Position numbers and translations under genes: made by a program. A DNA stretch of 59,049 nucleotides, from the IMG/VR virus record IMGVR_UViG_3300020048_000003. One strand, given 5' to 3'. This stretch comes from a virus. The stretch's first letter is position 1, and each line of letters opens with the position of its first letter. This document shows, one piece after another, positions 6,796-59,049 of this stretch. A model generated the notes under the pieces. That model saw only the letters and a list, made by a program, of their open reading frames with translations, did not search any database and had not been told where the DNA came from.

Positions 6796-6954
6796 TTATT
6801 TAGGTGGTTCTTTCTTTTTTTCTTCTATTTTTATATCTCCTTTTCCTTTACAAGTTGGACAAGTATATGAGTGTCCTTCATCATTTCTTCTATAACCTCG
6901 CCCATCACAATCATGACAAATGAGGTATTTTTTCTCTGAAATATCTTCATTCAT
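6796..6954 (-). CDS. 52-aa zinc-ribbon mini-protein (CHDC...CPTC), below ORF-track cut-off
   Basis: Manual translation MNEDISEKKYLICHDCDGRGYRRNDEGHSYTCPTCKGKGDIKIEEKKKEPPK; start overlaps stop of 6954..7301 by 1 nt (TAATG). Confidence 0.45.
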   Translation of the reverse strand: MNEDISEKKYLICHDCDGRGYRRNDEGHSYTCPTCKGKGDIKIEEKKKEPPK

Positions 6955-7301
6955 TATAAATTATATTTTTTTGAATCTCTTGCTAATTTTAAATCATTTG
7001 ATTTAAAATCTTTTCTTAATCTTGTTGGTACAATTGTTATTTTATAATCATATGCGTTTTCAATTAACCAAACTTGTGCTTTTGAATAATCTGTAATCAT
7101 ATCGGCTATTGTAAATTCTTTTTGTTTTCTCATAAATTGTGTTTCTAATTGCTCATTTACCATTGTAATAAGACAATCCCTTGCACTTTCTTCATTATCA
7201 AAAACTTCAATTTGAACATCAGCATCAGTGAACCATTCAGCTACGACGACCCATAAATCATATGGTGTGATTCTATTTTCAAATATTTTTAAGTGTTTCA
7301 T
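6954..7301 (-). CDS. array cassette protein (first member at this end)
   Basis: N MKHLKIFEN / C DSKKYNL; ATGA overlap with upstream gene. Confidence 0.8.
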   Translation of the reverse strand: MKHLKIFENRITPYDLWVVVAEWFTDADVQIEVFDNEESARDCLITMVNEQLETQFMRKQKEFTIADMITDYSKAQVWLIENAYDYKITIVPTRLRKDFKSNDLKLARDSKKYNL

Positions 7302-7645
7302 AAATTATAATTTTTTGCTGTCATATCTAAAAATGCCTGTTCCATATCATCAAATGAAAAACTAATATAAAAAGTGCTGATCAATTCGCCATTATTGTCA
7401 TTAAATACTTCTAAGGTGAAAACAAATTCATTTTGATCTTTACCACATCTAGTAATAATTAAATCATCTTCTGGTATCAGATAAGGCTTATCTCCATAAT
7501 CTGGATAATAGTGTTTATCTTTTGCTAATGCAGTATATTCTTCTATAACAAAAGGTCTTATTGATTTAGTAAAATCCTCATATTCTTTTAGAATCTTTGT
7601 TGCTGATTCTATTGTGTAATTTTCGTATATTCTTTTTACTTTCAT
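7298..7645 (-). CDS. array cassette protein
   Basis: N MKVKRIYEN / C TAKNYNL; ATGA overlaps both sides. Confidence 0.8.
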   Translation of the reverse strand: MKVKRIYENYTIESATKILKEYEDFTKSIRPFVIEEYTALAKDKHYYPDYGDKPYLIPEDDLIITRCGKDQNEFVFTLEVFNDNNGELISTFYISFSFDDMEQAFLDMTAKNYNL

Positions 7646-7896
7646 AAATTATATTTTTTTGCATCTCTGTAGGCAGAACTTCTAATAAAATTTAATTCTT
7701 TTAACACTTCATCAAAATCTTCATCATGAAAAAAATAAACATCATAATCTGAATTTTGATCTTTTTGTATTAAATTACTTCCTAATAAATATCTAATTTC
7801 TGTTTCTCTACATTCAAAACTTTCATCTCCTGAATCGGAATATAAATAATAATCTTCCTCATCTTCCTCTTCTTCAAATAGTTTAATATATTTCAT
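7642..7896 (-). CDS. array cassette protein, acidic
   Basis: N MKYIKLFEEEE / C DAKKYNL. Confidence 0.8.
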   Translation of the reverse strand: MKYIKLFEEEEDEEDYYLYSDSGDESFECRETEIRYLLGSNLIQKDQNSDYDVYFFHDEDFDEVLKELNFIRSSAYRDAKKYNL

Positions 7897-8225
7897 AAGT
7901 TATATTTATTTGCTTGTATTATTATTTCTAAATCTTCTCTATTTTTAGAATAATATAAAATTTCATGTTTTTCAAATATTCTAAGAGATACATTTTTATC
8001 GTGTTTTCTAAAATAGTGTTCAAGTCTTTTTGGTATTTCTGAACTAGGATAGACAACGTAAACATTATCATTTTGTAAATCTGCTCCTATGAATGTAATC
8101 TGACCAACATTATTACATAAAAAATTATTGATATCTTCACCATAAGATGATTTCATAATAACATAATCATATATTTCTGGTTCTTCAATATTTTCGTTAT
8201 TAAATTTTTCAAATACTTTTATCAT
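7893..8225 (-). CDS. array cassette protein (MIKVFEKF N-variant; EILYYSKNRE subfamily)
   Basis: N MIKVFEKFNNEN / C IIQANKYNL. Confidence 0.8.
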   Translation of the reverse strand: MIKVFEKFNNENIEEPEIYDYVIMKSSYGEDINNFLCNNVGQITFIGADLQNDNVYVVYPSSEIPKRLEHYFRKHDKNVSLRIFEKHEILYYSKNREDLEIIIQANKYNL

Positions 8226-8623
8226 AAATTATATTTATTTGCTGCAAAAAATAAATCAATATCATCTGGTATTTCATGCTGTAATATTTCTTCATATGTT
8301 TTTCTTGTTTCACGAACTATTAATTTAAATATATAATTACCATTTTTTGTGGAACCTTCTGAGGGCCAAGGTACTGCAATATCTGGTATATGCTTATTAA
8401 TAAAAAATACTATAGATTCAGCAGGACCTTTATTAGCGTTAGGAAAATAGCATTGTATATAATCTAGTTTTATATATTTTGCACCAGTCCAATATTTATT
8501 TAAAAAAGATTTTAGATTTTTTGCTTTATTTATCATCTCTTCAGTATCCATACCACAATCAACCTTATAAATAGCAACATACCATTTATATTCATTAGTA
8601 AATTTTTCAAATATTTTTATCAT
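8222..8623 (-). CDS. array cassette protein (MIKIFEKF N-variant)
   Basis: N MIKIFEKFTNE / C AANKYNL. Confidence 0.8.
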   Translation of the reverse strand: MIKIFEKFTNEYKWYVAIYKVDCGMDTEEMINKAKNLKSFLNKYWTGAKYIKLDYIQCYFPNANKGPAESIVFFINKHIPDIAVPWPSEGSTKNGNYIFKLIVRETRKTYEEILQHEIPDDIDLFFAANKYNL

Positions 8624-9243
8624 ATATTATAATTTATTGCTACTTCTAAGTAATCATATTTTTTCTTCAAATCATCTGGTAAAAATTTTTTACATAATTT
8701 ATAATTTTCAGGATGATTTTCTAATAACCAATCTATAAAGGGTTCAACACCAGGTATTAATATTTTTTTAGGATTATGATCAGGATTTGGATATATAGTT
8801 TCAGTTAAATATAACTCAATTAAGTTATAGTTTGAATCAAAATTATATCCATATTTTACCATATTCTTTAGCATTTCTACCATCTTAGGTGTTATTACAC
8901 GTTTACTACCATCATATTTTTTTTCACCTATTATATCAGGTAAACTAATACTATTAATTGAACTATCATCTCCCCAACCATTTGCGTAATCTGATTGTAA
9001 TAAATATTCAATCATTTTAAATTGATCATTTTCCAATGCAGTGGCAAAGAGATTAGAAATTATATCTCCTGCGTTTGCTATATCGTATCCATTATCCAAT
9101 AAATAATTTAAGCCATCAAAATCTCCTTCTCTTACAATATCAACAATAAACTTATTACCAAGTTTTTGAATTAATCTTTTCTCTTTCTTTTTCTTGGCTT
9201 TTAAGTAGTCTGCTTCAGTAAATTTTTCAAATACTTTTATCAT
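8620..9243 (-). CDS. array cassette protein (207 aa, MIKVFEKF N-variant)
   Basis: N MIKVFEKFTEAD / C AINYNI. Confidence 0.8.
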   Translation of the reverse strand: MIKVFEKFTEADYLKAKKKKEKRLIQKLGNKFIVDIVREGDFDGLNYLLDNGYDIANAGDIISNLFATALENDQFKMIEYLLQSDYANGWGDDSSINSISLPDIIGEKKYDGSKRVITPKMVEMLKNMVKYGYNFDSNYNLIELYLTETIYPNPDHNPKKILIPGVEPFIDWLLENHPENYKLCKKFLPDDLKKKYDYLEVAINYNI

Positions 9244-10481
9244 AAATTATATTTTTTTACTAATAACTCCATAATTTCGGGAATATGATCATATTCATTT
9301 ATAATTTTTGGATGTAATTTATGTACTATATATTTTGCATTATTTTCATCTATATCCAATATCATTTTTTGAAATTCATATGATTTTGTTATTTTATCAT
9401 CCATTCCAATTAATTTACCAATTATACTTGGATTTTGTTTCATTTTATTAATCCAATATTTTTCATTGTTATGTGTTATTCGTCTTGTTATATATGGATT
9501 TTCTTTACCATTATAATTTGATATTATATCATATGCTAAATCTAACTCTGGTTGTGCTAAATATTTATCAAATCTTTCATCTTTTGGATGGTCAAATCCC
9601 AAAAAATCCGATTTTCTTTTTAACGCGTCTAATGCGTTATATTGATCTTGATGACTCTGTGCATCTAATATCATTTTCAAATATTTCATATCAACTCCTC
9701 TATCACTTAATAAATCTATCAATTTAAAAAAGTTTATTTCATATTTATCAATATCATGTGTTGCATAACCTGAATATGAATAATCTCTTGCTTTAATTTT
9801 TGAATTTAATAAAATTGGTAATGCCTCATAATTATCTTTACATACAACATTATAAATGTGTCTGCAGGTGACTGGTATATTTAATTCTTCTACAAGATAT
9901 TTTATTAAATCTGGTGTTGTATTATATTTAGTTGCTTCATCTAAACAATTTTCTTCTGCGTGAGTCCAAGTTGCTTGTATTTTTTTTGTAGGGTCTAAGC
10001 CTTTATTTTTTACAAAGTATTTAACTAAATCTACTTGACCATGAAAAGCAGCAATTCTTAATAACTTTGAATCTAACTTAAATCCTAATTTTTCTAAAAA
10101 ATCAAAAGTTTTATTTCTATCATCAGTTTTAGCGTGATGTATTACATATTCTAAAAAATTATTACGATTTGTTAAAAATTCTTTATATAAATCATTTTTT
10201 AACATTACGGTTTTGAATGTTTCAAAATCAAGAAATGTTATACTTCTTTCTAATCTTATCAATTCTCTTAAAGGAAGTATATCAAGTAAAGCAATTACCA
10301 TTTCTGGAAATTGTTTAGTACAACTCCAGTGAAACAAATCACTTACACTTCCTTCTATTGTATGGTTTTTTATTTTATCTAAATAATAATCAACGTCACG
10401 AATTTTATCATTAAAAAACTCGTCATATAAGGATTTTTTAGGCATCTTTTTTTTAGCCTCAAATAATTTTATATATTTCAT
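9240..10481 (-). CDS. array cassette protein, large (413 aa) with ankyrin-like repeats
   Basis: N MKYIKLFEAKKK / C VKKYNL; LLRIAAFHGQVDLVKYFVKNKGLDP ankyrin-like segments. Confidence 0.8.
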   Translation of the reverse strand: MKYIKLFEAKKKMPKKSLYDEFFNDKIRDVDYYLDKIKNHTIEGSVSDLFHWSCTKQFPEMVIALLDILPLRELIRLERSITFLDFETFKTVMLKNDLYKEFLTNRNNFLEYVIHHAKTDDRNKTFDFLEKLGFKLDSKLLRIAAFHGQVDLVKYFVKNKGLDPTKKIQATWTHAEENCLDEATKYNTTPDLIKYLVEELNIPVTCRHIYNVVCKDNYEALPILLNSKIKARDYSYSGYATHDIDKYEINFFKLIDLLSDRGVDMKYLKMILDAQSHQDQYNALDALKRKSDFLGFDHPKDERFDKYLAQPELDLAYDIISNYNGKENPYITRRITHNNEKYWINKMKQNPSIIGKLIGMDDKITKSYEFQKMILDIDENNAKYIVHKLHPKIINEYDHIPEIMELLVKKYNL

Positions 10482-10768
10482 AAGTTATATTTTTGTGCTG
10501 ATTTTTCTAATTCAAATTTTTCAATTTCTTCTGGTGTCATTTTTCTTTCTATATCATCATCACAAATTATAACTTTTCCTATTCCAGAATCTTCATCTAA
10601 AATAGCTTCTGCTTCGTAATCATCCATATTTGCCTCATCATTCCACCAATGATCTAATATTTTTACAAACGGCTTTACCATCCAATCACTTTCGGATAAG
10701 ATAACATAATCTCCAATTTTATATTTTACCTCAGATTGAGAATCTTCAAATGTTTTTATATATTTCAT
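10478..10768 (-). CDS. array cassette protein, G-D-Y-V mini-domain type
   Basis: N MKYIKTFEDSQ...KIGDYVIL / C TPEEIEKFELEKSAQKYNL. Confidence 0.8.
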   Translation of the reverse strand: MKYIKTFEDSQSEVKYKIGDYVILSESDWMVKPFVKILDHWWNDEANMDDYEAEAILDEDSGIGKVIICDDDIERKMTPEEIEKFELEKSAQKYNL

Positions 10769-11067
10769 AGATTATATTTTTTTGCATCATGCTCTAATTC
10801 AAGTTGTTCAGATTCTTCTTTTGTTAGTTTTCTATCAACTTCATATCCATAAAATTGAGCACCAAGTCCTTCATCTTCACCTGTTAAAAATACACCTTGA
10901 TAAAAAATATATCTTGGATCATTCTTATTAAAATCGGTATCTTTGGTGATTCCAATTATTTTCATGTATTCTGCTACAATATCTGCCATTCTTGAAGTCA
11001 CGATAACAATATCATTGATTTTATAAACTGGATAAAAACTTTCCTCAAACAATTTTAAATGTTTCAT
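10765..11067 (-). CDS. array cassette protein, mini-domain type
   Basis: N MKHLKLFEESF / C ELEHDAKKYNL. Confidence 0.8.
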   Translation of the reverse strand: MKHLKLFEESFYPVYKINDIVIVTSRMADIVAEYMKIIGITKDTDFNKNDPRYIFYQGVFLTGEDEGLGAQFYGYEVDRKLTKEESEQLELEHDAKKYNL

Positions 11068-11591
11068 TTTTCTCCTTTGAATCCTATTTTTGTATCTTTA
11101 TATGCGTTTGTATTTTTATACATATTTGAACCATACATTTGTTTTTCTATTTCTTTTCTTTTTACATAAGAAGTTATATCTTTTAAATTAGCAAATAATT
11201 CTTCTGGTTTTGTTTCAGATGTTATTCCAGTTCTCATTGATACTCTATTAATTATAATTTCATGAGTATCAAAATAATTTTTAAATTCACTAATAATAGA
11301 CATTGCTTCATATTGATTAATAGCAGTAAAGAGTAAAAATATATTACAATATTTTTGTTTATCTTTAAATGGATTAAATGAAGATGGTGCTTTTTCTATA
11401 ATAACTTGAAATTGAGAAAATCCCAATCCAGCAATATATTGTATAAAATCTTCTTTTATATTTTTGAATTTTTTTATACCTGATTCGGTGGTATTAATAA
11501 CAAATCCAAAACCTTCTTCTTGAAAATGTTTATATCCTGCGGCTTTATACGGTCCTGTATAAAACTCAAATAAGTTGTAATTTGTTATCAT
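11064..11591 (-). CDS. array-embedded protein (175 aa) lacking the KYNL C-terminus
   Basis: N MITNYNLFEF (degenerate tag); ends KIGFKGEK; downstream junction absent. Confidence 0.65.
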   Translation of the reverse strand: MITNYNLFEFYTGPYKAAGYKHFQEEGFGFVINTTESGIKKFKNIKEDFIQYIAGLGFSQFQVIIEKAPSSFNPFKDKQKYCNIFLLFTAINQYEAMSIISEFKNYFDTHEIIINRVSMRTGITSETKPEELFANLKDITSYVKRKEIEKQMYGSNMYKNTNAYKDTKIGFKGEK

Positions 11592-11594
11592 ATC

Positions 11595-11978
11595 TTATAG
11601 ATTATATTTTTTTGCCATTATTTTTAATTCTAATTCTTCTTTATTCTTTGAGAAATATTTAATTTGGTCTGTGTAAGTTTTATCATTATAAACCAATAAA
11701 TATTTTTTCTTTTTATCATTACTTTTATAATCATCTTCAAAACAGCTTCTAAATCCGTATGGTATATCATCTTCAAAATAAACTTTATAACCTAAGAAAT
11801 TTTCTCCACTATGTTTTTGCATTTTTTCTATTCTAACTATTTGACATATTGTTGTTGCTATAAATTTTTTAAATCCTTGAAACCTATCATTCCAAGGAAA
11901 TTTGGTTGGATTTAATAATACATAATCACCAACTTCAGGTAATTGTTTTTGTGCTTCAAACAATTTCAAATATTTCAT
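11595..11978 (-). CDS. array cassette protein
   Basis: N MKYLKLFEAQ / C LKIMAKKYNL. Confidence 0.8.
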   Translation of the reverse strand: MKYLKLFEAQKQLPEVGDYVLLNPTKFPWNDRFQGFKKFIATTICQIVRIEKMQKHSGENFLGYKVYFEDDIPYGFRSCFEDDYKSNDKKKKYLLVYNDKTYTDQIKYFSKNKEELELKIMAKKYNL

Positions 11979-12484
11979 AAATTATATTTTTCTATATTTT
12001 TATAGAATTCAATTGGTTCTAATTGTTCTTCAATTTCTTTACATATAACTTCAAATTCTTTTATTATATCATCAAATATATTATTCTTTTTAAGAACGTC
12101 TTGTATTTTTGGGTAATATTCTTTTGTAAAATTCATGTATAAATCAATTGGTAAAAATTCATTATACTCAGTACCCCAGAAATGTGATAGATTACTAGTT
12201 CTATAGTGAGATATATTATTTAATGTTGTTGTAAAATAATATAAATCAAATGTGTTCAATCCTTCTTGTATATCACGAGTTCTCAATTTTATTTCTCTTA
12301 ATTTCGGATCATTTAATTTATTTGATTTCTTACGAATTAAATCTAATATTCCAACAATTCCATTAAATTGGCTTTGTCCTATGGACATACAAAAATAATC
12401 ATTTGTATTGTATTCAAGTACAAATTCATCACAAGAATATACTATTTTTTGGTATCTATTTTCAAATAATTTTAAATATTTCAT
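11975..12484 (-). CDS. array cassette protein (169 aa)
   Basis: N MKYLKLFENRY / C KNIEKYNL. Confidence 0.8.
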   Translation of the reverse strand: MKYLKLFENRYQKIVYSCDEFVLEYNTNDYFCMSIGQSQFNGIVGILDLIRKKSNKLNDPKLREIKLRTRDIQEGLNTFDLYYFTTTLNNISHYRTSNLSHFWGTEYNEFLPIDLYMNFTKEYYPKIQDVLKKNNIFDDIIKEFEVICKEIEEQLEPIEFYKNIEKYNL

Positions 12485-12876
12485 AAGTTATATTTTTCTG
12501 CGTCTTCAAATCTATCAATAATATCTTTGTATTTTGGATCATATTTTAATCTACTATCAAATCCTACGGTATCATATATAATTTGTTCTTTACCTAAATT
12601 TATTATTGATTTTTGTAAATCTAAATCATTTTGTAATCTTCTTTTAAAATCCCAACTATCTTCAAATTCTTCTAAATTTATACCTTTTTCAACTAAATGT
12701 GCAAACATTACAAAAGGATCATAACATGCTTGAACTAAAGCTTCTTCATTATTTATATCATAACCTTTATTAAGAAAGAAATCAACTATCTTAATTTCTC
12801 CAGTTTGAACAGATTTTTTAAATAGCAAATCTTTCATTTCCTTAATATTATTATATTTTTCAAATAATTTAATCAT
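12481..12876 (-). CDS. array cassette protein
   Basis: N MIKLFEKYNN / C EDAEKYNL; preceded by divergent intergenic region. Confidence 0.8.
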   Translation of the reverse strand: MIKLFEKYNNIKEMKDLLFKKSVQTGEIKIVDFFLNKGYDINNEEALVQACYDPFVMFAHLVEKGINLEEFEDSWDFKRRLQNDLDLQKSIINLGKEQIIYDTVGFDSRLKYDPKYKDIIDRFEDAEKYNL

Positions 12877-12916
12877 AATATTTTATATATATAAAAAAAT
12901 AAATATTTATTTTTAG
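12877..12916. promoter_or_regulatory. 40-nt AT-rich divergent intergenic region (candidate promoters for 12876<- and ->12917)
   Basis: Only non-coding spacer between divergently oriented genes; TATATATAAAAAAATAAATATTTATTTTTAG. Confidence 0.3.
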
Positions 12917-13819
12917 ATGATAGATTTAGTATTAACAATGATAGCCGCGTATGATGATTATGAAACCGAACTTGGTTTTACAAAAGATGATATAAATAAT
13001 ATCATCAAAAAATATAAAGCACTTGATGATTTAAAAGAAAGTAATGAAATAGGATGGATCATTTTGTGGAAAAACAAGTATATTTCAAATGAAATATTTG
13101 CAAAATTAATGGATGTTGAATACGAAGATAAGGATTTTTGGATTGTGTGTGATAATTTTGATGATGTTTTATCTAAGGAATATGAAACAGAAATTGAAAT
13201 TTTAGATGGTAATTTAGATTGGGAACCAGGTGAAACTTATGATGTTGAATTATATTATCATTGGAACTCATTTACAGAAGAAACATTAAAAGACATAGTA
13301 AAATTTTGTATTGATAAAGGATTTGAAATTGATGATGAATTAATGACAGAAGAAAATACAATCTTTAAAGATGGTGATATATATTTTATTGGTTCTGATG
13401 ATGAAAAAAGAATCTATGATCTATTAAATGATGATGAATTGGAAGATTTAAAAAGTTCATTAAATATCGCAATATGTGAAGCACAAGAAAGTGCTGATCA
13501 GAGTGAAATGTATAGAGCTGTAAAAAAGGCTTTTATAAATTCAGTTGGCGAATATAAATATAAAACTATCAATGTAGATGGAAAAGACGAAGAGAAATTA
13601 TATATTAGAATGGATATAGATTGGGTTGATATTGAATCTAGATTAAAAGATGAATATGGTGATTTTGACTTTGATACAGAAAATTATGGAAGTCTTCTTT
13701 ATATATTAAAAGAATATGAATATTTTGATTTTAGAGTACCCGATTATGATCGTTTATCTGGTAGTATTGATGATGATATAATGAATGAATATATTCAAAA
13801 TCGTTTAGAGTGGGATTAA
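12917..13819 (+). CDS. acidic hypothetical protein (300 aa) on opposite strand, interrupting the array
   Basis: ORF track; D/E-rich; convergent 4-nt overlap with 13816..14685. Confidence 0.7.
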   Translation: MIDLVLTMIAAYDDYETELGFTKDDINNIIKKYKALDDLKESNEIGWIILWKNKYISNEIFAKLMDVEYEDKDFWIVCDNFDDVLSKEYETEIEILDGNLDWEPGETYDVELYYHWNSFTEETLKDIVKFCIDKGFEIDDELMTEENTIFKDGDIYFIGSDDEKRIYDLLNDDELEDLKSSLNIAICEAQESADQSEMYRAVKKAFINSVGEYKYKTINVDGKDEEKLYIRMDIDWVDIESRLKDEYGDFDFDTENYGSLLYILKEYEYFDFRVPDYDRLSGSIDDDIMNEYIQNRLEWD

Positions 13820-14685
13820 AGATTATATTTTCCAGCGTCTCTTTTCATTATTTTATTTTTAATAAATTTCATTGCTTTCTTTTCATCTCCCACATTTTGT
13901 AAAATTTCATATTTATCACCAACTAAAAAATCTTTTGTTTTACCAAAAATTAATATCATATTTTCTGTAGGTTCAAGATATTCAATATCAAAACTATTTA
14001 TGTCTTTTTCAAATGCTTTTTTTACATCTAATATTGTTTTATTATCATCAATAAAAAACTCTATCATTTTATAAAAAAAGTTTGTATTTAAAAAAACAAC
14101 AGAATATGTATCATACTTTTTAGTTTCTGAGCATATAGATTGAATTTTTTTTGCTTCTTTTGGTGGTATAGTTGTAATACTTCTGAAACTTGAACGAATA
14201 CTATCACCAGTGCTCAAATCGTAAATGAAATTTTTAGCAACATCATAATAGAAATCTTCCATATCTGGATAACTTTGTAATATAAATTTTTCACCTAAGT
14301 CGTATTTATAATAGCCATAATAATATTTTATAAGTTTTTCATCTGGTTCACCATCATCTAAAGTATTACCACCTAATGGATAATCTTTATCAAAATGATA
14401 TAAAACATAATCCATAAAGAAACCGTGCATTGTAAAATTAAAATCTTTAAGAATTTTTTCTCTATATTCTCTATAGAAATTTTCAAAATTAAAACCTTCT
14501 TCTAAAAGTTCATCTAATAATTTATTCAAATATTGATCAAGTTCATTTGTATCAGTTTTAAAATGACGTGTAAAATTTCCAGTTAAATCAGTATAGTCTT
14601 CATTTACTTCAATAAAATTAATAATAAATTGATAGATTTGTTTGGATAATTCCGCATATGCATATTCTTTATAATTTGTTTCCAT
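13816..14685 (-). CDS. array cassette protein (289 aa), atypical N-terminus
   Basis: N METNYKEYAY / C RDAGKYNL. Confidence 0.75.
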   Translation of the reverse strand: METNYKEYAYAELSKQIYQFIINFIEVNEDYTDLTGNFTRHFKTDTNELDQYLNKLLDELLEEGFNFENFYREYREKILKDFNFTMHGFFMDYVLYHFDKDYPLGGNTLDDGEPDEKLIKYYYGYYKYDLGEKFILQSYPDMEDFYYDVAKNFIYDLSTGDSIRSSFRSITTIPPKEAKKIQSICSETKKYDTYSVVFLNTNFFYKMIEFFIDDNKTILDVKKAFEKDINSFDIEYLEPTENMILIFGKTKDFLVGDKYEILQNVGDEKKAMKFIKNKIMKRDAGKYNL

Positions 14686-14690
14686 AATGT

Positions 14691-15861: not shown

Positions 15862-15863
15862 TT

Positions 15864-16516: not shown

Positions 16517-16518
16517 AA

Positions 16519-17084: not shown

Positions 17085-17085
17085 T

Positions 17086-17559: not shown

Positions 17560-17560
17560 A

Positions 17561-45855: not shown

Positions 45856-45857
45856 TT

Positions 45858-47997: not shown

Positions 47998-48007
47998 CTA
48001 TCTATAT

Positions 48008-50913: not shown

Positions 50914-50914
50914 T

Positions 50915-51271: not shown

Positions 51272-51627
51272 AAATTATATTTATTTGCGTCTTTTTCTAA
51301 TTGAAATTTTTCCATATACATATTTATAGTATAATCGTCTAAATGAAAAAGATAGTATATCCTTGAATAAGAAGAATCATCAACTATTTCAGTTTCAAAC
51401 ATCCATCCTGAATATCCCATAAAAATTTCAAATTTTTCTATACTTTCAACCGTTTCTTTAAATATAGAACTAAAACAAATTTTAAATTTAAATACATCAA
51501 CACTAACATCGTATTTTATGACAATATCATCAAATTCATCTAATCCAATAAAAAACTTTTGAATAACTAATTTTTTAAATTCTTTTGCTAAATCTTTATT
51601 GTTTTCGTATAATTTCTTTATCTTCAT
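51268..51627 (-). CDS. array cassette protein
   Basis: N MKIKKLYENNK / C KDANKYNL. Confidence 0.8.
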   Translation of the reverse strand: MKIKKLYENNKDLAKEFKKLVIQKFFIGLDEFDDIVIKYDVSVDVFKFKICFSSIFKETVESIEKFEIFMGYSGWMFETEIVDDSSYSRIYYLFHLDDYTINMYMEKFQLEKDANKYNL

Positions 51628-51629
51628 AA

Positions 51630-52040
51630 TTATAAATTATATTTATTTACTGCGTTTTGTAAATCATATTCTTTTAGATATTCTTTACATATTTTTGGAA
51701 CTCTTTCTCTTAAATATTCAATAATTTCTTTCTGATATTTATGTGCAAACAAGTGAACAAAATCTCTATTAAAGTTATCCCTTACATTTAAATCTGCGCC
51801 TTCTTTTATTAAAATTATCATCATTTCTTTTAAAACTAATTTTTTAATACTTTTAGTTAAATTAGGTAAACTGGATTCCCAAATATTTGCGATTGTCATT
51901 AATGGTGTTAACTCATATTCGTCTCTGATATTTACATCAATACCAGAGTTTATTTTTGATATAAAATAATCATAATCACATTTTTCTATTGCTTCAAATA
52001 TATCTAAACTTTTTGCTTCGTATAATTTCTTTATCTTCAT
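51630..52040 (-). CDS. array cassette protein, ankyrin-like
   Basis: N MKIKKLYEAKS / C AVNKYNL; ELTPLMTIANIW...LIKEGADLNVRDNFNRDFVHLFA. Confidence 0.75.
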   Translation of the reverse strand: MKIKKLYEAKSLDIFEAIEKCDYDYFISKINSGIDVNIRDEYELTPLMTIANIWESSLPNLTKSIKKLVLKEMMIILIKEGADLNVRDNFNRDFVHLFAHKYQKEIIEYLRERVPKICKEYLKEYDLQNAVNKYNL

Positions 52041-52042
52041 AA

Positions 52043-52336
52043 TTATAAATTATATTTATTTGCTGCTCTTATTAATTCTAATCTATCTTCAATTTCTTTT
52101 CTATCTCTCTTTAGATATTCACCTTTGATTATTAAATATGGAGGTTTATCGTTTAATTCCATCCATTCTTCACTTGTTATCATCATCATCTCACCTGTTG
52201 CTTTTCCATCACTATCAATTTCAAATATTACAGATTTTTTATCTTCCATCATATCATGAAATCTGCCCGAATTCATTGAACCTGAGGCATCAAGAAGAGT
52301 ATGACGAAAAAATTCATATGTTTTAATATTTTTCAT
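52043..52336 (-). CDS. array cassette protein
   Basis: N MKNIKTYEFF / C RAANKYNL. Confidence 0.8.
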   Translation of the reverse strand: MKNIKTYEFFRHTLLDASGSMNSGRFHDMMEDKKSVIFEIDSDGKATGEMMMITSEEWMELNDKPPYLIIKGEYLKRDRKEIEDRLELIRAANKYNL

Positions 52337-52338
52337 TT

Positions 52339-52719
52339 TTATAAATTATATTTAAATGCTTGTTCTTCCCAAGGTTTTAATTTTAAAGTAATCAAATCCT
52401 TTTCTTCTATTTTATACCATTTTAATGCATATTCTTTTGTACTAAATTCACCCTTATTATTATTTATAGTAAAAAAATTGTGATGTTTCTTTTTATACAT
52501 ATCAAATATTTGAATTATAAGACCATCAGGATATCTACTTTCATGTAATCTTTTAATATCATTTACTATATCTTCTGTCAATTTTGGTGTAATATTTTTT
52601 ATTCTTCTAATTAAAATTTCAGCTTCTCTAAAATGAGAATAGGGTATATAAAAAATTTTTTTTGGTAAATATCTCAGCATATTATCTACAGCATCCTCAT
52701 ACATTTTCAAATGTTTCAT
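52339..52719 (-). CDS. array cassette protein
   Basis: N MKHLKMYEDAV / C EQAFKYNL. Confidence 0.8.
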   Translation of the reverse strand: MKHLKMYEDAVDNMLRYLPKKIFYIPYSHFREAEILIRRIKNITPKLTEDIVNDIKRLHESRYPDGLIIQIFDMYKKKHHNFFTINNNKGEFSTKEYALKWYKIEEKDLITLKLKPWEEQAFKYNL

Positions 52720-53219
52720 AAGTTATATTTATCCATTGCTTTTTTTAATTCCCATTTATCAAAACTTTTCTTCTCATATTTTTTAACTTGTGTTTCAAAT
52801 TGTTTTAATCCATCTAATATATCTCCAATTGTATTAGAATTCATAACTATAACATCAAGAGTGTGTAAATACATAGTTAAAAATGGTAATCCATGGATTT
52901 TTTTTCTTGCAGTATCTATATCATAACCAACTCTAACTAAAAATGTTTCTATAACTACTTCTTTACTAGATAATTGAACTTTTTTTGAATTCGGTTCTAA
53001 TTCTATTTCTCTTATTCTTGGATCCTTTTCATAATCAGTATCTAAGATTTTTACACAGCCATATAACATTGAATGTGGATGAAAATTTTCATAAATGGAT
53101 TCTCTCATTCCAAATTGAATTTTACCTTTATTTGCAACTCCATTTTGTAGTTTGGTGATTTTCAAATATTTATCAATCTCCACTACATTTAGACCTTCAT
53201 ATAATTTTATAAATTTCAT
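52716..53219 (-). CDS. array cassette protein
   Basis: N MKFIKLYEGLN / C KAMDKYNL. Confidence 0.8.
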   Translation of the reverse strand: MKFIKLYEGLNVVEIDKYLKITKLQNGVANKGKIQFGMRESIYENFHPHSMLYGCVKILDTDYEKDPRIREIELEPNSKKVQLSSKEVVIETFLVRVGYDIDTARKKIHGLPFLTMYLHTLDVIVMNSNTIGDILDGLKQFETQVKKYEKKSFDKWELKKAMDKYNL

Positions 53220-53584
53220 AAGTTATATTTTTTTGAAATTTCAAGAATATCTAACATTTCTTCTGCATCTTTTTTATCGTTTGTTTGATATATAATATGT
53301 GGTTTTATATAAGACATTCTTTCTGTATTATAATTATACTTACCAAATAAGATTTCTAATTTACCATTTTTATAAAAACGAAGTTGTTCTATTTGAACAT
53401 CCTTATCATATACTATTCCATCAGGATCAACTTTACGAACTCTAAATAAAAGTATTGTTATTCCACCATTTCTAAAATTTGTAAAATTTTCTACAATAAT
53501 ATATTCTTTAAGTCCGGCACTTTCTCTATCCTTATCACGATAACCAATATCGTTAAAACTTTCATTAAATTTTAATATTTTCAT
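53216..53584 (-). CDS. array cassette protein
   Basis: N MKILKFNESF / C ISKKYNL. Confidence 0.8.
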   Translation of the reverse strand: MKILKFNESFNDIGYRDKDRESAGLKEYIIVENFTNFRNGGITILLFRVRKVDPDGIVYDKDVQIEQLRFYKNGKLEILFGKYNYNTERMSYIKPHIIYQTNDKKDAEEMLDILEISKKYNL

Positions 53585-54012
53585 AAGTTATATTTTATTG
53601 CTGCTTTTTCTGCTTCTTCCATATCAATCCAATCTTTTATTTCTTCATCCGATGCTTTTAATTCTCCCATATATTTAAAACTGGCATCATCTTCTTCTTG
53701 ATTATACCATTTATCTAACGCACTCCAAGTGAAATAACCATTTGGATAATCTTCTCTTGGCACTGAAGTTTGTAAAATTATATATTCAATAGAAGGATCA
53801 GGCATTCTTGATTTTTCATTTCTTGAAAATAATCCACTTCTATGTAAATTTTTCCATTGTTTAAATTGTTCATCTGGCATACCTGCTTTTTTTAAACAAA
53901 TATAAAAATCAGGTAATTTAATTGGTATTTTCCATTTTTTACCTTTTGGTTTTTCGTATGGTTCCCATCCTTTTACAAAATCTTCTATTCTATATTTCTT
54001 TATATGCTTCAT
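53581..54012 (-). CDS. array cassette protein
   Basis: N MKHIKKYRIED / C KAAIKYNL. Confidence 0.8.
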   Translation of the reverse strand: MKHIKKYRIEDFVKGWEPYEKPKGKKWKIPIKLPDFYICLKKAGMPDEQFKQWKNLHRSGLFSRNEKSRMPDPSIEYIILQTSVPREDYPNGYFTWSALDKWYNQEEDDASFKYMGELKASDEEIKDWIDMEEAEKAAIKYNL

Positions 54013-54015
54013 TTA

Positions 54016-54348
54016 CTAGAGATTATATTTATTTGTATCATTGAAAAAATCATACTCTTTAACTGCTTCAGCCATAGTATCAAAAAATTTAAGTATTTTA
54101 ATGTCTGTTATATGTTGAGCATCAGACTTAAATGTTTCCCAAGCTTGATAATGATCTTCCCATTCATAATACTCAATGTTAATAAAATATGTATTTAATA
54201 CGACTTTTATAAGTTTACCAATAAAAAGATTACCATCAAAACTTACATGTTCAAATATCATGAATCTACCTTCATTTTGTGCATATTCTTTAGATAACCT
54301 ATTAAGTTTATCCAATACTTCACCTTCAAATAATTTTAAATATTTCAT
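54016..54348 (-). CDS. array cassette protein
   Basis: N MKYLKLFEGEV / C NDTNKYNL. Confidence 0.8.
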   Translation of the reverse strand: MKYLKLFEGEVLDKLNRLSKEYAQNEGRFMIFEHVSFDGNLFIGKLIKVVLNTYFINIEYYEWEDHYQAWETFKSDAQHITDIKILKFFDTMAEAVKEYDFFNDTNKYNL

Positions 54349-54716
54349 AAGTTATATATTATTGCTGCAATTTCATAATCTTCAATTCTTAATTCACCAC
54401 CATATTTATAACCATCTCTTGTATATTCTTCATATCCACTTTTTACATCATTTCTTTCATTACAAATCCAATATTCATAATTAGCATTATCATTATATTT
54501 TGGTAAAATACCAATATAAATACCATTACAGTTTTCATTCTTCACACCAGATAAAACATATCCATCTGAAAAAATTTCATTTTTTACATCATCATCAATA
54601 TCCAAACGTGTGAGCACCAACTTAATCAATTCTACTGTATTATGTGGAATGAAGAAAAAAGTGTTAAAATTCTTTCTTCTGGTTCTTCTAATTTCAAATA
54701 ATTTCAAATATTTCAT
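54345..54716 (-). CDS. array cassette protein
   Basis: N MKYLKLFEIRR / C EIAAIIYNL. Confidence 0.8.
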   Translation of the reverse strand: MKYLKLFEIRRTRRKNFNTFFFIPHNTVELIKLVLTRLDIDDDVKNEIFSDGYVLSGVKNENCNGIYIGILPKYNDNANYEYWICNERNDVKSGYEEYTRDGYKYGGELRIEDYEIAAIIYNL

Positions 54717-54721
54717 AACTT

Positions 54722-55180
54722 TCAGAGATTATATTTATTTGATGTTAAATAAATATCTATATTGTCTAATTCTTTTGCTAATATACCATTTTCAAAATTC
54801 CAACCATATTCAGTTTTCTTTTTACAAACAGCATCAAATATATTATCTATTGATTTAATTTTATTTTTTAATTTAGTTTCACAACTACCACAATCATATT
54901 TAATCCAAAGACCATCCTTTTTATAATCAAACTGAAAAATGAAATAATTATTAAGAGTAGTAAACACTAATGACAATATTTTCCATTTTCCAATTCTTTC
55001 TTCTTTTTGGTTTGCCTCTAAATCTAAATAATTAACATATGTTTCATCTAATGTTTTTTTTATAATATTTCTTAAAAATTCTCTTATCTTGATAACTTCA
55101 GGTTCAACTTCAAAATATCTTATTTCTACTGGAGTTTCAGCCTTAATTCTAACTTGTTCAAATGTTTTAATATGTTTCAT
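54722..55180 (-). CDS. array cassette protein (start corrected to internal MKHIKTFEQV)
   Basis: Track ORF 54722..55219 runs into upstream gene; family N-tag at 55180; C LTSNKYNL. Confidence 0.7.
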   Translation of the reverse strand: MKHIKTFEQVRIKAETPVEIRYFEVEPEVIKIREFLRNIIKKTLDETYVNYLDLEANQKEERIGKWKILSLVFTTLNNYFIFQFDYKKDGLWIKYDCGSCETKLKNKIKSIDNIFDAVCKKKTEYGWNFENGILAKELDNIDIYLTSNKYNL

Positions 55181-55181
55181 T

Positions 55182-55466
55182 TCAGAGATTGTATTTTTTT
55201 GCGTTGTATTCCCATTCATATAAAAACATTTTTTCAGGAATTATATAACCTATTTTATTATCATCTTTATCATATACACGATAATAGTATCTAATACTTG
55301 ATGATATCACGTCATATATTTTATATTTTTCACCTATTTCACATCTATTTGAATCTGATTGATATGGATTTGTATATCGTCTACCAATAAAAATAACTTC
55401 TTCATCAATCTTAAATTTAGAATCTTCAATTGGTTTCTGACCTTCAAATGTTTTAATATATTTCAT
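55182..55466 (-). CDS. array cassette protein
   Basis: N MKYIKTFEGQ / C YNAKKYNL. Confidence 0.8.
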   Translation of the reverse strand: MKYIKTFEGQKPIEDSKFKIDEEVIFIGRRYTNPYQSDSNRCEIGEKYKIYDVISSSIRYYYRVYDKDDNKIGYIIPEKMFLYEWEYNAKKYNL

Positions 55467-55765
55467 AAGTTATATTTATTCAAATTTATATAAAATTCAA
55501 TTTCATCTTCAGTTAATTTTCTATTTATTCTATCTTCTATTATATAAATAAATTCTTCATCATTATATTTAGTCAATCTTTCAGATACATTAAAACCTTC
55601 ATATTGAATCCTTTGATATTTAGTATCTAAATGAAAATTAACTCCTTCAATATCGGTTATTCTCATTACTTTACTATTATCATATAACACAATATCATTG
55701 ATTTTATACTTTGCTATTTTTTTTAAATCAACATAACTAATTTCAAATGTTTTAATATATTTCAT
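55463..55765 (-). CDS. array cassette protein, mini-domain type
   Basis: N MKYIKTFEIS...KINDIVLY / C LTEDEIEFYINLNKYNL. Confidence 0.8.
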   Translation of the reverse strand: MKYIKTFEISYVDLKKIAKYKINDIVLYDNSKVMRITDIEGVNFHLDTKYQRIQYEGFNVSERLTKYNDEEFIYIIEDRINRKLTEDEIEFYINLNKYNL

Positions 55766-56037
55766 AAGTTATATGTTTCAGCACTATTTTTTAATTCAAA
55801 TTCCTCATAATCTTCTGATGTTGCTAATCTTAAAATTTGAAATTCATATGCACCATCTACTTTTTTATTATTTTTAGGATATTTATTTTCTATTTGGTAA
55901 CTTGTAGGTACAATATCAAAAATAGTTCCGATTCTCTCTTCTTCTTTTTCCATTGTATAATCATAATACGTATAAATAATAGTATCACCAACTCTATAAG
56001 GGCGATTCAATTCTTCATATGTTCTAATATATTTCAT
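55762..56037 (-). CDS. array cassette protein, mini-domain type
   Basis: N MKYIRTYEELNRPYRVGDTIIY / C KNSAETYNL. Confidence 0.8.
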   Translation of the reverse strand: MKYIRTYEELNRPYRVGDTIIYTYYDYTMEKEEERIGTIFDIVPTSYQIENKYPKNNKKVDGAYEFQILRLATSEDYEEFELKNSAETYNL

Positions 56038-56492
56038 AAATTATAATTATTTACAGCGTTATAAAATTCAAATTCTTCTTCAGATACCTTTTTTATAAGT
56101 TCAGGTATTTGTGTAAAGCCAGTTAATTTTGGTGTATTTTTCATTACATTATAAAAAAACAATACCCTATCAAGAAGAGCATCTGGAATTTTTGGTTTAG
56201 CGACAGTTTTTTCTAATTGCCAATCTTTTATGTTTATGTTTACTCTAAATTCAAACCACATATCTATATCTTCGTAGTAATGATCAATTTTATTTAACGT
56301 AAATAAATGATGTTTACCCTTTTTATTTTCACAATAAAAATTATATCCCATTGCATTTTCATGTGAATAAACGCGACAATCATTATTCATTGTTAAAAAA
56401 TCTATTAAATGTTTTACGAAATCTGGTAAGATATGACCATACCAACCAAGTGGTCTTTTTTCTAATATCTCAAATGTTCTAATATATCTCAT
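56034..56492 (-). CDS. array cassette protein
   Basis: N MRYIRTFEIL / C NAVNNYNL. Confidence 0.8.
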   Translation of the reverse strand: MRYIRTFEILEKRPLGWYGHILPDFVKHLIDFLTMNNDCRVYSHENAMGYNFYCENKKGKHHLFTLNKIDHYYEDIDMWFEFRVNINIKDWQLEKTVAKPKIPDALLDRVLFFYNVMKNTPKLTGFTQIPELIKKVSEEEFEFYNAVNNYNL

Positions 56493-56821
56493 AGATTATA
56501 TTTATTTACAGTACTTTTAAATTCTAAATCGTTTAGAAATTCCTCAACATCTTCTATTTCAGTTCCTAATTTTGTCATTTCTTGTACTCTCCATAAACTT
56601 ACCTCTCCCCATAGTTTGAATTTTTTTTGTTTTTCTGATTTAGTAGTAAAAACATAAAAACTACAATCTTTAGCAAATTCAACCATTCTAAAATCTTCTA
56701 TATCAGCACTTAAAATATGAGATATCAACTTTTCAAATTTTTCTTTATCATTATCTTTTGATAATGATTTACCATACCAATTCATTGTATTCTTATTTTC
56801 AAATAATTCTATGTATTTCAT
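56489..56821 (-). CDS. array cassette protein
   Basis: N MKYIELFENKN / C STVNKYNL. Confidence 0.8.
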   Translation of the reverse strand: MKYIELFENKNTMNWYGKSLSKDNDKEKFEKLISHILSADIEDFRMVEFAKDCSFYVFTTKSEKQKKFKLWGEVSLWRVQEMTKLGTEIEDVEEFLNDLEFKSTVNKYNL

Positions 56822-57114
56822 AAATTATAATTTCTTGTTGTTCTTTCAAATTCAAATTCTTCAATTTCCTCTGGGGTTAGTTTTCTTTCAACAGTATATT
56901 TATTATAAACTATTCTCTCATTATCTATTAGTTCTATTTCAACATTACCATATGGATAAACATTTACTACTTTACCCCTGTCAGGAATTTCAACAAAATC
57001 AACTCCATCAGTAAAACTCATATCATATAATTTAACATAATCTCCAACTTCACATTTAACCAAATCTGGTTCATCACGTTTTATAATAGTTTCAAATAAT
57101 TCTATGTATTTCAT
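56818..57114 (-). CDS. array cassette protein, mini-domain type; first (most upstream) gene of this array block
   Basis: N MKYIELFETII...EVGDYVKL / C TPEEIEEFEFERTTRNYNL. Confidence 0.8.
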   Translation of the reverse strand: MKYIELFETIIKRDEPDLVKCEVGDYVKLYDMSFTDGVDFVEIPDRGKVVNVYPYGNVEIELIDNERIVYNKYTVERKLTPEEIEEFEFERTTRNYNL

Positions 57115-57167
57115 TAAACAAACATCTATTTTATCTATATATTAAATATAAAAATTAATTTATAAAA
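57115..57167. promoter_or_regulatory. 53-nt AT-rich divergent intergenic region (candidate promoters for array block <-57114 and ->57168)
   Basis: Only spacer between divergent genes; no coding capacity. Confidence 0.3.
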
Positions 57168-57542
57168 ATGTCATATGAAAAAATATTTAATCCATCACAA
57201 CAAGATATTCAAGATATATCAAAAATATTCTCCATAGAACATATTGGAAATTCCAGAATAGATGGTTATCCTATGTTTAAAACAAAATATACCAATTATA
57301 CCGATTTAGATGAACTTAAAGAATTTTTTTCACTACAACTTATTCCTCTATTAGAAGATCATATAGCAGGATTTATGGCTACAGGATCCACAATAAATAT
57401 GATGCCTGGATTTCCTGCAGGTCAAAAAGATTTTATATTGTTAAAAATTAGCGGATTAAAAAAAGATTACAAACAATTTGTTCGTAGTGAAAAACTTAAA
57501 AAAATAGAAATACATTTTCAAGATGAAATATCAGGTAGTTGA
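57168..57542 (+). CDS. hypothetical protein (124 aa), + strand island
   Basis: ORF track; ATG start preceded by AT-rich spacer. Confidence 0.65.
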   Translation: MSYEKIFNPSQQDIQDISKIFSIEHIGNSRIDGYPMFKTKYTNYTDLDELKEFFSLQLIPLLEDHIAGFMATGSTINMMPGFPAGQKDFILLKISGLKKDYKQFVRSEKLKKIEIHFQDEISGS

Positions 57543-57720
57543 ACATATGTTTCCAGCATTAAAAAGTGTTATTGCTGTTAATTTAACTTTTAAAGAAGCA
57601 GAAGAATTATGCGAGAAATATTCTGATTGTGATGCTTATACTGATTTTGTTATTGAAGAAATGAAACAAACAATAAAAGAAAAAAGAAAAGAAAAATTAG
57701 AAAAAATTAGTTCTTTATAA
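57523..57720 (+). CDS. hypothetical small protein (65 aa) with C-terminal KEKRKEKLEKISSL tail
   Basis: ORF track; same lysine-rich C-tail motif as genes at 75-1378. Confidence 0.55.
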   Translation: MKYQVVEHMFPALKSVIAVNLTFKEAEELCEKYSDCDAYTDFVIEEMKQTIKEKRKEKLEKISSL

Positions 57721-58143
57721 ATTATATTTTTTAGCAGATTTTTTTAAAGCTCTATCAGCCAAATATTGATTAGTTTCAGGTACAACTCTTTCATACCATT
57801 CTTGATATTCAGGTGTTTTTTTCAACTTCTCAACATTATCTAATGTCATAATAACTGATACTTCTATTCCATATCCTGTTAATGAAAATTGTTCAATTGT
57901 ACCATATTTTTCCATATACTCATAAAATTTAGTAAAAATTGCAAAATCTACTGGCGTATATTTATTCCATGTTCCTTCTCTACCACCTTTTAAAAATTTT
58001 ATTTGAACACGCAAAAATTTAGGAGATTCTTTTTCTTGAACACCATTTATTTTATATCTGTCAAAAAATTTATCATAAAGAAAATCAGCAATTGGCTTCA
58101 CTCCTCTATAAATTTTTCTCTCATTGAATTTTTCTATTTTCAT
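57715..58143 (-). CDS. array cassette protein (degenerate N-tag MKIEKFNERK)
   Basis: C KSAKKYNL; ATGA overlap with upstream gene; convergent with + island. Confidence 0.75.
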   Translation of the reverse strand: MKIEKFNERKIYRGVKPIADFLYDKFFDRYKINGVQEKESPKFLRVQIKFLKGGREGTWNKYTPVDFAIFTKFYEYMEKYGTIEQFSLTGYGIEVSVIMTLDNVEKLKKTPEYQEWYERVVPETNQYLADRALKKSAKKYNL

Positions 58144-59049
58144 AATACTATCTTTCCATTTTTTACAAACCTATCAAAAAATACTTTTAATATTCCTGTT
58201 TTTGTATCATTAATCGGATCAAATCCTAAATATCCAACTCTTGGTTCCCATGAAAGATAAATTGCTGTTCCTTTATATTTATGCATTGTGAAATAACCTG
58301 TCATATCGTCAGGTACATTTTTATAAGCAACATCATCTTTTTCTGGAAATATCTGAACAATATATGATAATTTCTTATTCAATTTGTTATGTATTATTAT
58401 AAAATGATATCCTTTGTCTATATAACTTTGATAAATTCTTGGATATATTGTACACCATTGTGGATAATTTATGTAATTAGTTGCTTCAAAACTATCTGGC
58501 TTAAAAATTATCCAATCTTCATTTTCATAAAGAATCTGAACATCATCATCAAATCTTAATTTTTCTATGTTATCTTTACTTGATACTTTCTTAATATACC
58601 TGAACCATTCTTCTGGTTTTTTAAAAAGACTCATCATACCCCTAAGTTCATCCTTATTAATACTTCTAAAATTTAATTTTGCTATTTTATCTAAATAGTT
58701 CTGTTTCAATTCTTTCTTCAAAAAACCAGGAGCATACTCATCTACAAATTTGTTTACATCTGTAATATACAATTGTCTATCTACTTGATTATAAAATTGT
58801 TGTGGTGAGTTTACTAATGTATTCGTATCAATTTTTACATTTGATTTTAAAACTTTATCAAGATAATCTTTAATTTTTTCTAATTCAAGTTTTTGATTAT
58901 CAGATTTATACAAAATTAAAGTGAGAATATATAAAAGTCCAAGTTTACCTTTTTCTCTAACATATTCTTTTAGTTGATTATAATAAGTAGTATCTAAATT
59001 ATTTTTAACAACATAGTTATCAGCTTGTTGTAAATTTTCAAATAATTTA
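58140..59049 (-). CDS. array-family protein, 5' partial (continues past window end), about 300 aa
   Basis: Track ORF starts at a TTG, but the frame is open to the window edge; final + strand bases ttcaaataattta encode ...KLFE of the family N-tag; ends NGKIVL. Confidence 0.6.
   Translation of the reverse strand, partial: KLFENLQQADNYVVKNNLDTTYYNQLKEYVREKGKLGLLYILTLILYKSDNQKLELEKIKDYLDKVLKSNVKIDTNTLVNSPQQFYNQVDRQLYITDVNKFVDEYAPGFLKKELKQNYLDKIAKLNFRSINKDELRGMMSLFKKPEEWFRYIKKVSSKDNIEKLRFDDDVQILYENEDWIIFKPDSFEATNYINYPQWCTIYPRIYQSYIDKGYHFIIIHNKLNKKLSYIVQIFPEKDDVAYKNVPDDMTGYFTMHKYKGTAIYLSWEPRVGYLGFDPINDTKTGILKVFFDRFVKNGKIVL

Follow-up and report, generated by a model that had tools for sequence, protein, structure and literature searches.

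We analysed a 59,049-nt stretch of viral DNA (24% G+C; IMG/VR record IMGVR_UViG_3300020048_000003), called the window below, whose minus strand carries at 6954-58143 a nearly gapless run of ~125 tandem small genes. The products of these genes, which we term cassettes, have in common a short N-terminal peptide (N-tag) and an even better conserved C-terminal peptide (C-tag) around cores that are mostly unrelated, and selection on both tags was found to act mainly at the level of the protein. The tags are probably signals by which the products are sorted to, or docked on, one shared partner. One form of this idea, in which they load the cassette products into the phage head as the capsid targeting sequence (CTS) does for the internal proteins (IPs) of phage T4, is an arguable proposal which, judged from the sequences at hand, we rate somewhat below an even chance.

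The cassette array and its terminal tags

The cassette products measure 26-413 aa (median 119 aa), and neighbouring genes are mostly joined through an ATGA stop/start overlap. The array goes on past position 59049, and L069, a longer assembly that includes this sequence, holds ~16 further cassettes until a Toprim/primase gene is reached; the whole array thus extends over ~60 kb and ~140 genes. One member within the window lacks the N-tag (Table 1), yet its paralogue beyond the window (L069 1327-2178) has both tags. Reassignment of a stop codon was considered and rejected, since TGA, TAA and TAG all cleanly end cassettes, and scans of the window with Rfam and for tRNAs gave no match.

Tag counts were taken over 128 array products. 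The stronger of the two features, overlooked in an earlier sequence-only reading of this DNA, is the C-tag: K-[YF]-N-[LIM] ends 122 of the 128 products, the consensus end is (D/N)-A-x-K-Y-N-L, and K-Y-N-L is preceded by a helix-like hydrophobic-E-hydrophobic-x-x-(D/N)-A-x segment, so that the C-tag sits on an amphipathic C-terminal helix ending in K-[YF]-N-[LI]-COOH. Relatives show K-F-N-L in place of K-Y-N-L. At the other end of the products the typical N-tag comprises a flexible 7-8 residues, M-K-[YH]-[IL]-K-x-[FY]-E, with conserved hydrophobic residues at positions 4 (I/L) and 7 (F/Y) and a near-invariant Glu8 closing it. The sequence-only reading had every cassette start with MKYIKLFE; a shared N-terminus is real, as the strict motif M-[KR]-x-[ILV]-[KRQEG]-x-[FY]-[ED] is present in 72 products and [FY]-E lies inside the first 12 residues of 109, but the exact octapeptide begins only 12 and the claim was to that extent overstated. 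Most of the remaining N-termini are indel forms that keep x-[FY]-E (MIKxFE, MITNFKIFE, MKIKKxYE, MKTYExF). The junction pattern AAATAYAAYYTATGAAAYAYHTWAAA, in which one C-tag meets the next N-tag, occurs 26 times against 0.00 expected from 100 shuffles, and the strict 8-mer is found at only 0.04% of internal Met residues in related loci. The N-tag was also found on enzymes, namely an AAA_5 ATPase and a methyltransferase.

Selection on protein or nucleic acid at the junctions

Within the tags, Ile4 is encoded by ATT (23) and ATA (25) in the same proportion as in the background, Leu(-1) is spread over five codons (TTA, CTA, CTT, CTC and TTG), and at Tyr(-3) TAC is not depleted, though it would break a promoter-like core. 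Replacements are conservative (I/L, F/Y, K/R, Y/H) despite changing first or second codon positions, and the tags are conserved even between genomes whose homologous cassette cores are merely 25-45% identical. With Ile4 codons at background, conservative swaps and tags kept while the cores diverge, selection on both tags acts mainly on the protein. The tags are likewise kept on the first genes after promoters, on the last genes before terminators and on a lone cassette that converges with the gene next to it. The sequence-only reading had offered, as its own alternative, that the N-tag does no more than optimise translation initiation; the codon analysis, together with tags at places where no reinitiation occurs, disfavours this as the sole cause.

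Some synonymous sites are nevertheless biased: Thr6 is ACA in 24/24 cases, Ala(-6) is GCA in 89% (56% in the background), Lys(-4) is AAA in 105/107, and Asn(-2) is AAC in 31% (8% in the background). The K-Y-N codons also put AAATATAA at -11 to -4 from the next ATG at every junction (e.g., 16765-16790, minus strand), where, but for one mismatch, it is in register with the stand-alone cassette promoters (ATATATAA). Therefore, a secondary nucleic-acid role is possible; each junction could double as a weak late promoter from which the following gene is expressed without a leader, but the codon data speak against strong selection at the DNA level.

Cargo cores and predicted structures

The cores between the tags are mostly unrelated to one another, the majority being BLAST singletons. 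An SH3/Tudor-like beta-barrel core with a GDYV motif was identified in ~32 window cassettes (about a quarter) and an ankyrin-repeat core in 10 (~8%), and searches of PHROGs and NCBIfam added just ankyrin-type and unnamed families. Among the cargos proposed in the sequence-only reading, ankyrin repeats were borne out by profile matches in about 10 genes and small beta domains by the barrel (AlphaFold2, Foldseek); the zinc ribbons do have matches, but only weak single ones, while a vWA/MIDAS domain had no listed profile match, there being just D-x-S-G-S strings in 20903-21418 and 52043-52336. The barrel-family profile, run against 1.84 billion representatives, recovered 2,482 clusters at 50% identity, and 143 of the 150 listed matches were short hits, of which 141 end in [YF]N[LIMV] and 137 have the strict N motif. 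A word-indexed homologue search with one cassette returned 5 matches.

AlphaFold2 models of a barrel cassette and an ankyrin cassette (Table 1) reached a mean predicted local distance difference test (pLDDT) score of 81 and 89, respectively. In both models, which have unrelated folds, the N-tag is disordered (mean pLDDT 54 for residues 1-10 and <50 for residues 1-7) and the chain ends in a terminal helix bearing the C-tag. The barrel bears a weak resemblance to PWWP, Tudor and chromo-barrel folds in Foldseek. That the N-tag and C-tag pair into one small fold was also considered, and the disorder of the N-tag in both models does not support it.

Relatives, lineage and head module

The junction pattern was found in 66 stretches, on IMG/VR contigs as long as 330 kb; most of these stretches have 21-31% G+C and tagged open reading frames (ORFs). 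One window protein is also recorded on a 286,618-bp contig. Relatives encode a T4-type gp20 portal, a gp4 homologue and a gp23 capsid protein whose N-terminal delta domain is homologous; one 124-aa ORF weakly matches gp55 (E 4e-5). Between the portal and capsid genes (L113 12320-14692, L126 12385-14763) lies a gene for a 790-aa protein whose N-terminal domain is weakly prohead-protease-like, with 28 bits against S80 (above the Pfam cut-off) and 22 bits against S77 (below it), and is fused to ~600 further residues; the protein may be a protease-scaffold fusion. As to a possible cleavage site in the capsid protein, the L-T-E of T4 aligns with P-G-L-V-W in the clade, and a conserved L-N-E is located further upstream. 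One 154.9-kb contig has the exact junction and the head module together. Cassettes in relatives stand inside head modules, adjoining the portal gene, and also occur one by one or a few together between core genes. In one such head module (L087), two opposite-strand ORFs of 524 aa (11731-13305) and 544 aa (14354-15988) lie around a cassette and a head gene; neither is present at these positions in L113, and they are suspected homing endonucleases.

The nearest deposited genomes are those of the huge phages LR756501-4 (636-735 kb), with capsid proteins 49-57% identical. A 40-kb locus of LR756502 encodes many N-tagged proteins from which the C-tag is absent, and the N-tag thus appears to be the older feature. 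No match to the window DNA was found in 50,697 phage records, nor did tblastn with two cassette families find one there, so that these records include no cultured relative. A full-text literature search for MKYIKLFE, KYNL and related strings returned nothing relevant, and a paper on bS21 phages and a comparative one on jumbo phages make no mention of such arrays. From its cassettes, tags and promoter motifs, the array appears to belong to a huge phage with a genome of at least 286 kb and a Bacteroidota host that groups with the T4-related huge phages.

Promoters and timing of expression

The element TTTT[AT]ATATATA[AT] was present upstream of 28/28 portal genes and 13/13 capsid genes, compared to only 1/26 of the replication genes gp44, gp43 and gp47. 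Among cassettes with an intergenic gap of at least 25 nt, this late-type element precedes 36 of 74 and the host-type TAnnTTTG only 4 of 74. The window array contains eight late-type sites, several of them right after terminator hairpins (Table 1); the hairpin at ~48013-48040 overlaps the stop codon of the upstream cassette, which still ends KYNL. The spacing from element to ATG is about 3-5 nt for cassettes but ~20 nt for other genes, suggesting leaderless or near-leaderless mRNAs, and the same short coupling is seen in LR756502. By promoter inference, the cassettes, which are translationally coupled, would be transcribed late together with the head genes. TAnnTTTG promoters stand before the auxiliary genes, in window regions with no evident Shine-Dalgarno (SD) sequences, and point to a Bacteroidota host, in agreement with the Bacteroidetes hosts predicted for related bS21 phages (PMC9723584).

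The tags as possible capsid-loading signals

The sequence-only reading noted that the shared N-terminus resembles the T4 CTS and put forward that the array may encode capsid-packaged effectors injected into the host. As we would frame it, both tags would be peptides for sorting or docking through which every cargo reaches the same partner, and this partner would be a T4-type prohead scaffolding core. The N-tag would act like the CTS and may be cut off after Glu8 by an S77/S80-type prohead protease, the C-tag may be a second docking or retention element, and the products would be packaged in the head and then injected with the DNA.

Prohead proteases of this type cut after Glu. The MKTYQEFIAE start of T4 IPIII was confirmed (AF158101); IPII has the identical start and IPI begins MKTFKEFTST. 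The T4 internal proteins are diverse cargos with only the CTS in common, at ~1000 molecules per head (PMC3012670), and residues 4 and 7 matter for targeting by the CTS (PMC9026906). The array is like this system in having a short N-terminal leader common to otherwise unrelated cargos and a hypervariable cargo locus, and its leader likewise starts M-K and is hydrophobic or aromatic at positions 4 and 7. It is also late by promoter inference, and its relatives encode a portal, a capsid protein and, by a weak match, a protease of the T4 type. The variants quoted in the sequence-only reading (MKTYENFISDL, MKTYEKFI, MKTYEAFITQEE and MKTYEGFFNDL) are all present in the window, and these four MKTYExF[IF] cassettes come closest to the T4 peptide (Table 1). 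Canonical cassettes have M1, K2, F7 and a hydrophobic residue 4 (I/L) in common with MKTYQEFIAE and nothing more, and a 10-mer resemblance in an A/T-rich genome is no proof of homology.

Several observations weigh against capsid loading. The array leader ends in x-[FY]-E, so that the conserved residue is an aromatic P2, the very position left free by the T4 motif (L/I)-x-E, and position 10 of the MKTY variants is D, Q or S, not Glu. At P3 before the putative Glu site the window has L in 45, T in 30, I in 14 and K in 8 cases, and 143 database representatives have T in 72, K in 24 and L in 20. Hence the equation of K-L-F-E with L-x-E in the sequence-only reading holds for the 59 of 109 products with L or I at P3 and fails for the rest, and, P3 being variable (T, K, L and others), T4-type recognition of (L/I)-x-E would leave the cleavage of most cassettes unexplained. 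As a rule the cargos are acidic, with a median isoelectric point of 5.5 compared to 9.0-9.7 for the T4 internal proteins, which have no counterpart of the C-tag, the better conserved of the two tags. The late-type promoter also precedes non-structural genes (exonuclease, IF3, PPK2 and DnaJ) and thus marks a late class rather than a virion class; lateness does not imply packaging. As for a prohead protease and scaffold core, for which the sequence-only reading had suggested a search, a match does stand beside the portal and gp23 genes in relatives, but it is weak, with S77 under the Pfam cut-off, and the head module was seen in relatives only, with no portal of the window genome itself within the best 120 out of 1,392 portal homologues. 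None of the non-cassette proteins from the window had a BLASTP match in the related loci, so that cassettes, tags and promoter motifs alone tie the window to the clade. Finally, 140 species of internal protein would be unprecedented.

The required load would not be excessive. At 5-10 copies each, 140 species of ~13 kDa come to 9-18 MDa by our own arithmetic, and the T4 internal proteins total roughly 14 MDa per head. A report on SPN3US gives >40 MDa, above this estimate (PMC7411985). The reading of the array as capsid-packaged effectors keeps the T4-type relatives, the late promoter, the disordered N-tag, positions 4 and 7 and Glu8 on its side, whereas the cleavage motif, the C-tag and the acidity of the cargos do not fit it. 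Its fullest version, in which each capsid would be loaded with a sample of >100 small binding proteins and enzymes through a two-part address (a CTS-like N-tag plus a K-Y-N-L helix tag) that is modular and accepts any cargo, is tentative and, in our view, doubtful.

Comparison with known phage head proteins

Set against the T4 internal proteins, the array would be an extreme extension of the leader-plus-cargo principle to which a C-terminal tag has been added: it has ~140 genes instead of 3, an extra and better conserved C-terminal tag, a variable P3 before its terminal [FY]-E, and acidic rather than basic cargos. Giant phages of the phiKZ/SPN3US type, whose cleavage motif is S/A/G-x-E, are of a different lineage from the array phages, and to our knowledge their propeptide-bearing inner-body and ejection proteins are larger and have neither a uniform 8-residue leader nor a C-terminal tag. 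The protease domain in the relatives described here nevertheless scores best against S80, the type which cuts many head-internal proteins of those phages after Glu (PMC5694885, PMC7411985).

Alternative explanations

The tags could instead dock the cassettes on a common cytoplasmic machine, the products being adaptors or decoys that hand captured host or defence proteins to a protease, unfoldase or chaperone, or that time their own turnover. A variable binding domain joined to a short terminal motif that docks on common machinery is known from poxvirus ankyrin/PRANC (F-box-like) proteins and from SspB-type adaptors, to which the cassettes bear a functional analogy only, with no sequence relation. 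The architecture of a binding domain with a flexible N-terminal peptide and a C-terminal helix would suit such a role, as would the acidic, soluble cargos, the ClpS, ClpB-like AAA+, M16 peptidase and DnaJ proteins encoded by related phages, and the DnaJ-type zinc-finger mini-proteins that flank the array. A second C-terminal motif, R-K-x-K-L-x-K-I, on small genes in the host-type promoter regions further makes terminal tags look like a general habit of this lineage. However, we know of no degron or adaptor motif that resembles the tags, and packaging agrees better with the co-regulation with head genes and with the cassettes that adjoin the portal gene, so that cytoplasmic docking is in our judgement unlikely.

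It is distinctly unlikely that the junction is mainly a nucleic-acid signal, that is, an all-A/U start region for SD-less termination-reinitiation or leaderless translation, possibly with an embedded weak late promoter, and that the protein motifs are a by-product. Pure A/U codons exist in the preferred usage for each of K, Y, N, L, I and F, the biased synonymous sites and the promoter register of the junctions are in line with such a signal, cassette promoters lie 3-5 nt from the ATG in LR756502 as well, and the clade encodes IF3 and related phages bS21 (PMC9723584). A/U richness alone, however, would not set the order K-Y-N-L, and the usage at Ile4, Tyr(-3) and Leu(-1), the conservative amino-acid swaps (K-F-N-L in relatives among them) and the retention of tags without a downstream gene or upstream termination all argue for the protein.

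That the conserved ends are chiefly recombination handles, with ~45 nt shared per boundary for in-frame swap, duplication or deletion of cassettes as in integron cassettes or T4 PeSL, is very unlikely; in its favour, the array is huge with mostly unrelated cores, a 26-aa "empty" cassette looks like an in-frame cargo deletion between tags, and cassettes are scattered among the core genes of relatives, but no recent exchange was seen (best inter-genome core identities 25-45%), and synonymous variation within the tags lowers DNA identity and leaves conservation strongest at the amino-acid level. The PeSL mobile regulatory cassettes of T4 are reportedly intergenic early promoter-plus-stem-loop units, proposed by Arbiol et al. 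in 2010 to promote modular shuffling. They are comparable as short conserved sequences at boundaries in blocks of small variable phage genes, whereas the conserved sequence of the array is coding, protein-selected and tied to late-type promoters; a DNA-level junction of the PeSL type with cassette exchange was not found here, synonymous variation at Ile4 and Leu(-1) being at background and cores between genomes having diverged as stated. Serving as recombination handles could be a side benefit compatible with capsid loading.

Neighbouring genes and other features

A mini-protein of CxxC zinc-finger repeats (52 aa, 6796-6954, minus strand) has a match to the CxxCxGxG domain of DnaJ and shares one base with the last cassette; another (65 aa, 1840-2037, plus strand) was recognised by eye, and full-length DnaJ is found in related phages. 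A cREC_REC (PF20274) domain protein is encoded at 3803-4135 and, beside it, at 4137-4676 (both minus strand), a protein that by eye begins with a hydrophobic stretch resembling a membrane segment and that carries an acidic EEIQENVEEIQ repeat. Small non-array genes form a second terminal-tag family with ends like R-K-x-K-L-x-K-[IL]-N (e.g., IRKEKLKKIKKV, LRKDKLQKINKL); they occupy regions with host-type TAnnTTTG promoters, for example directly upstream of 5561-5875. The same tail occurs in L008 (3503-3763), and in LR756502 (L124) it takes the form R-D-x-K-L-x-x-L-G-I. Within the array, a 281-nt non-coding gap (32928-33208) contains three tandem 30-nt units (33009-33098), the first with a perfect 10-bp hairpin, and a terminator-like hairpin at 33157-33198, with no Rfam match.

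Table 1. Positions of the cassette array, selected cassettes, promoter elements and second-tag genes in the window.
Feature	Position	Strand	Remarks
Cassette array	6954..58143	-	~125 tandem small genes, broken only by the few interruptions listed
Array interruption, 300-aa acidic protein without tags	12917..13819	+	late-type promoter element upstream, 22 nt spacing
289-aa member, C-tag present, N-tag absent (METNYKEY...AGKYNL)	13816..14685	-	sequence
Array interruption, two genes	57168..57720	+	second gene ends in the other terminal motif, RKEKLEKISSL
309-aa gene leaving the window edge, no C-tag	58140..59049	-	start MKFLQDFKLFEN in L069; further cassettes upstream in L069
"Empty" 26-aa cassette MKYLKRFESKITIDLDLFFDVKKYNL	49498..49578	-	N-tag and C-terminal helix tag, no cargo
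GTG-start cassette, usual tags (VKYIKLFE...ANKYNL)	45553..45855	-	sequence
Barrel cassette, 96 aa, N-tag MKYIKTFE, GDYV motif, C-terminal helix ending KYNL	10478..10768	-	AlphaFold2, Foldseek
Ankyrin cassette, 128 aa	31482..31868	-	ten window paralogues; model residues 1-7 disordered, C-terminal helix 111-126
Cassette nearest T4 CTS, MKTYENFISD (T4 MKTYQEFIAE)	39077..39478	-	6/10 positions identical
Cassette starting MKTYEAFITQEE	22312-22713	-	MKTY type, 5-6/10 identical to T4 CTS
Cassette starting MKTYEGFFNDL	23806-24150	-	MKTY type, 5-6/10 identical to T4 CTS
Cassette starting MKTYEKFI	24455-24937	-	MKTY type, 5-6/10 identical to T4 CTS
Late-type element ATATATAG, 4 nt before ATG of 47650-47997	48002..48009	-	hairpin at ~48013-48040 precedes
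Late-type element, 3 nt before ATG of 30447-30746	30750..30757	-	terminator hairpin ~30766-30785 precedes
Late-type element, 5 nt before ATG of 41528-41869	41875..41882	-	motif
Late-type element, 4 nt before ATG of 37385-38323	38328..38335	-	motif
Late-type element, 3 nt before ATG of 32664-32927	32931..32938	-	motif
Late-type element, 5 nt before ATG of 20580-20858	20864..20871	-	motif
Late-type element, 6 nt before ATG of 12481-12876	12883..12890	-	divergent intergenic region shared with 12917-13819 (+)
Late-type element upstream of cassette 56818-57114	57135..57142	-	divergent intergenic region
Bacteroidota-type TAnnTTTG elements, e.g. TAATTTTG, TATATTTG, TATCTTTG	2038-2224, 2885-2967, 5876-6082, 6359-6492		upstream of non-array genes
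Genes with second terminal tag	1-74 (partial), 75-320, 310-579, 605-805, 802-1116, 1091-1378	+	C-terminal sequence
Genes with second terminal tag	4848-5174, 5561-5875	-	C-terminal sequence
Gene with second terminal tag	57523-57720	+	C-terminal sequence

Implications

Should the tags prove to be signals for capsid loading, the lineage would spend about one fifth of its genome (at least 286 kb) on proteins that enter the host along with the DNA, and this virion-delivered effector library would exceed every known phage arsenal by far. Our view of how huge phages seize or disarm their hosts would have to be revised, and the tags would be a natural and portable packaging signal, made of two peptides, for phages of Bacteroidota. 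Even with another partner, thousands of distinct metagenome proteins begin with the same eight residues and end with the same four around cores that evolve fast, an arrangement not described in the literature searched, and one that makes the question of what reads the tags testable.

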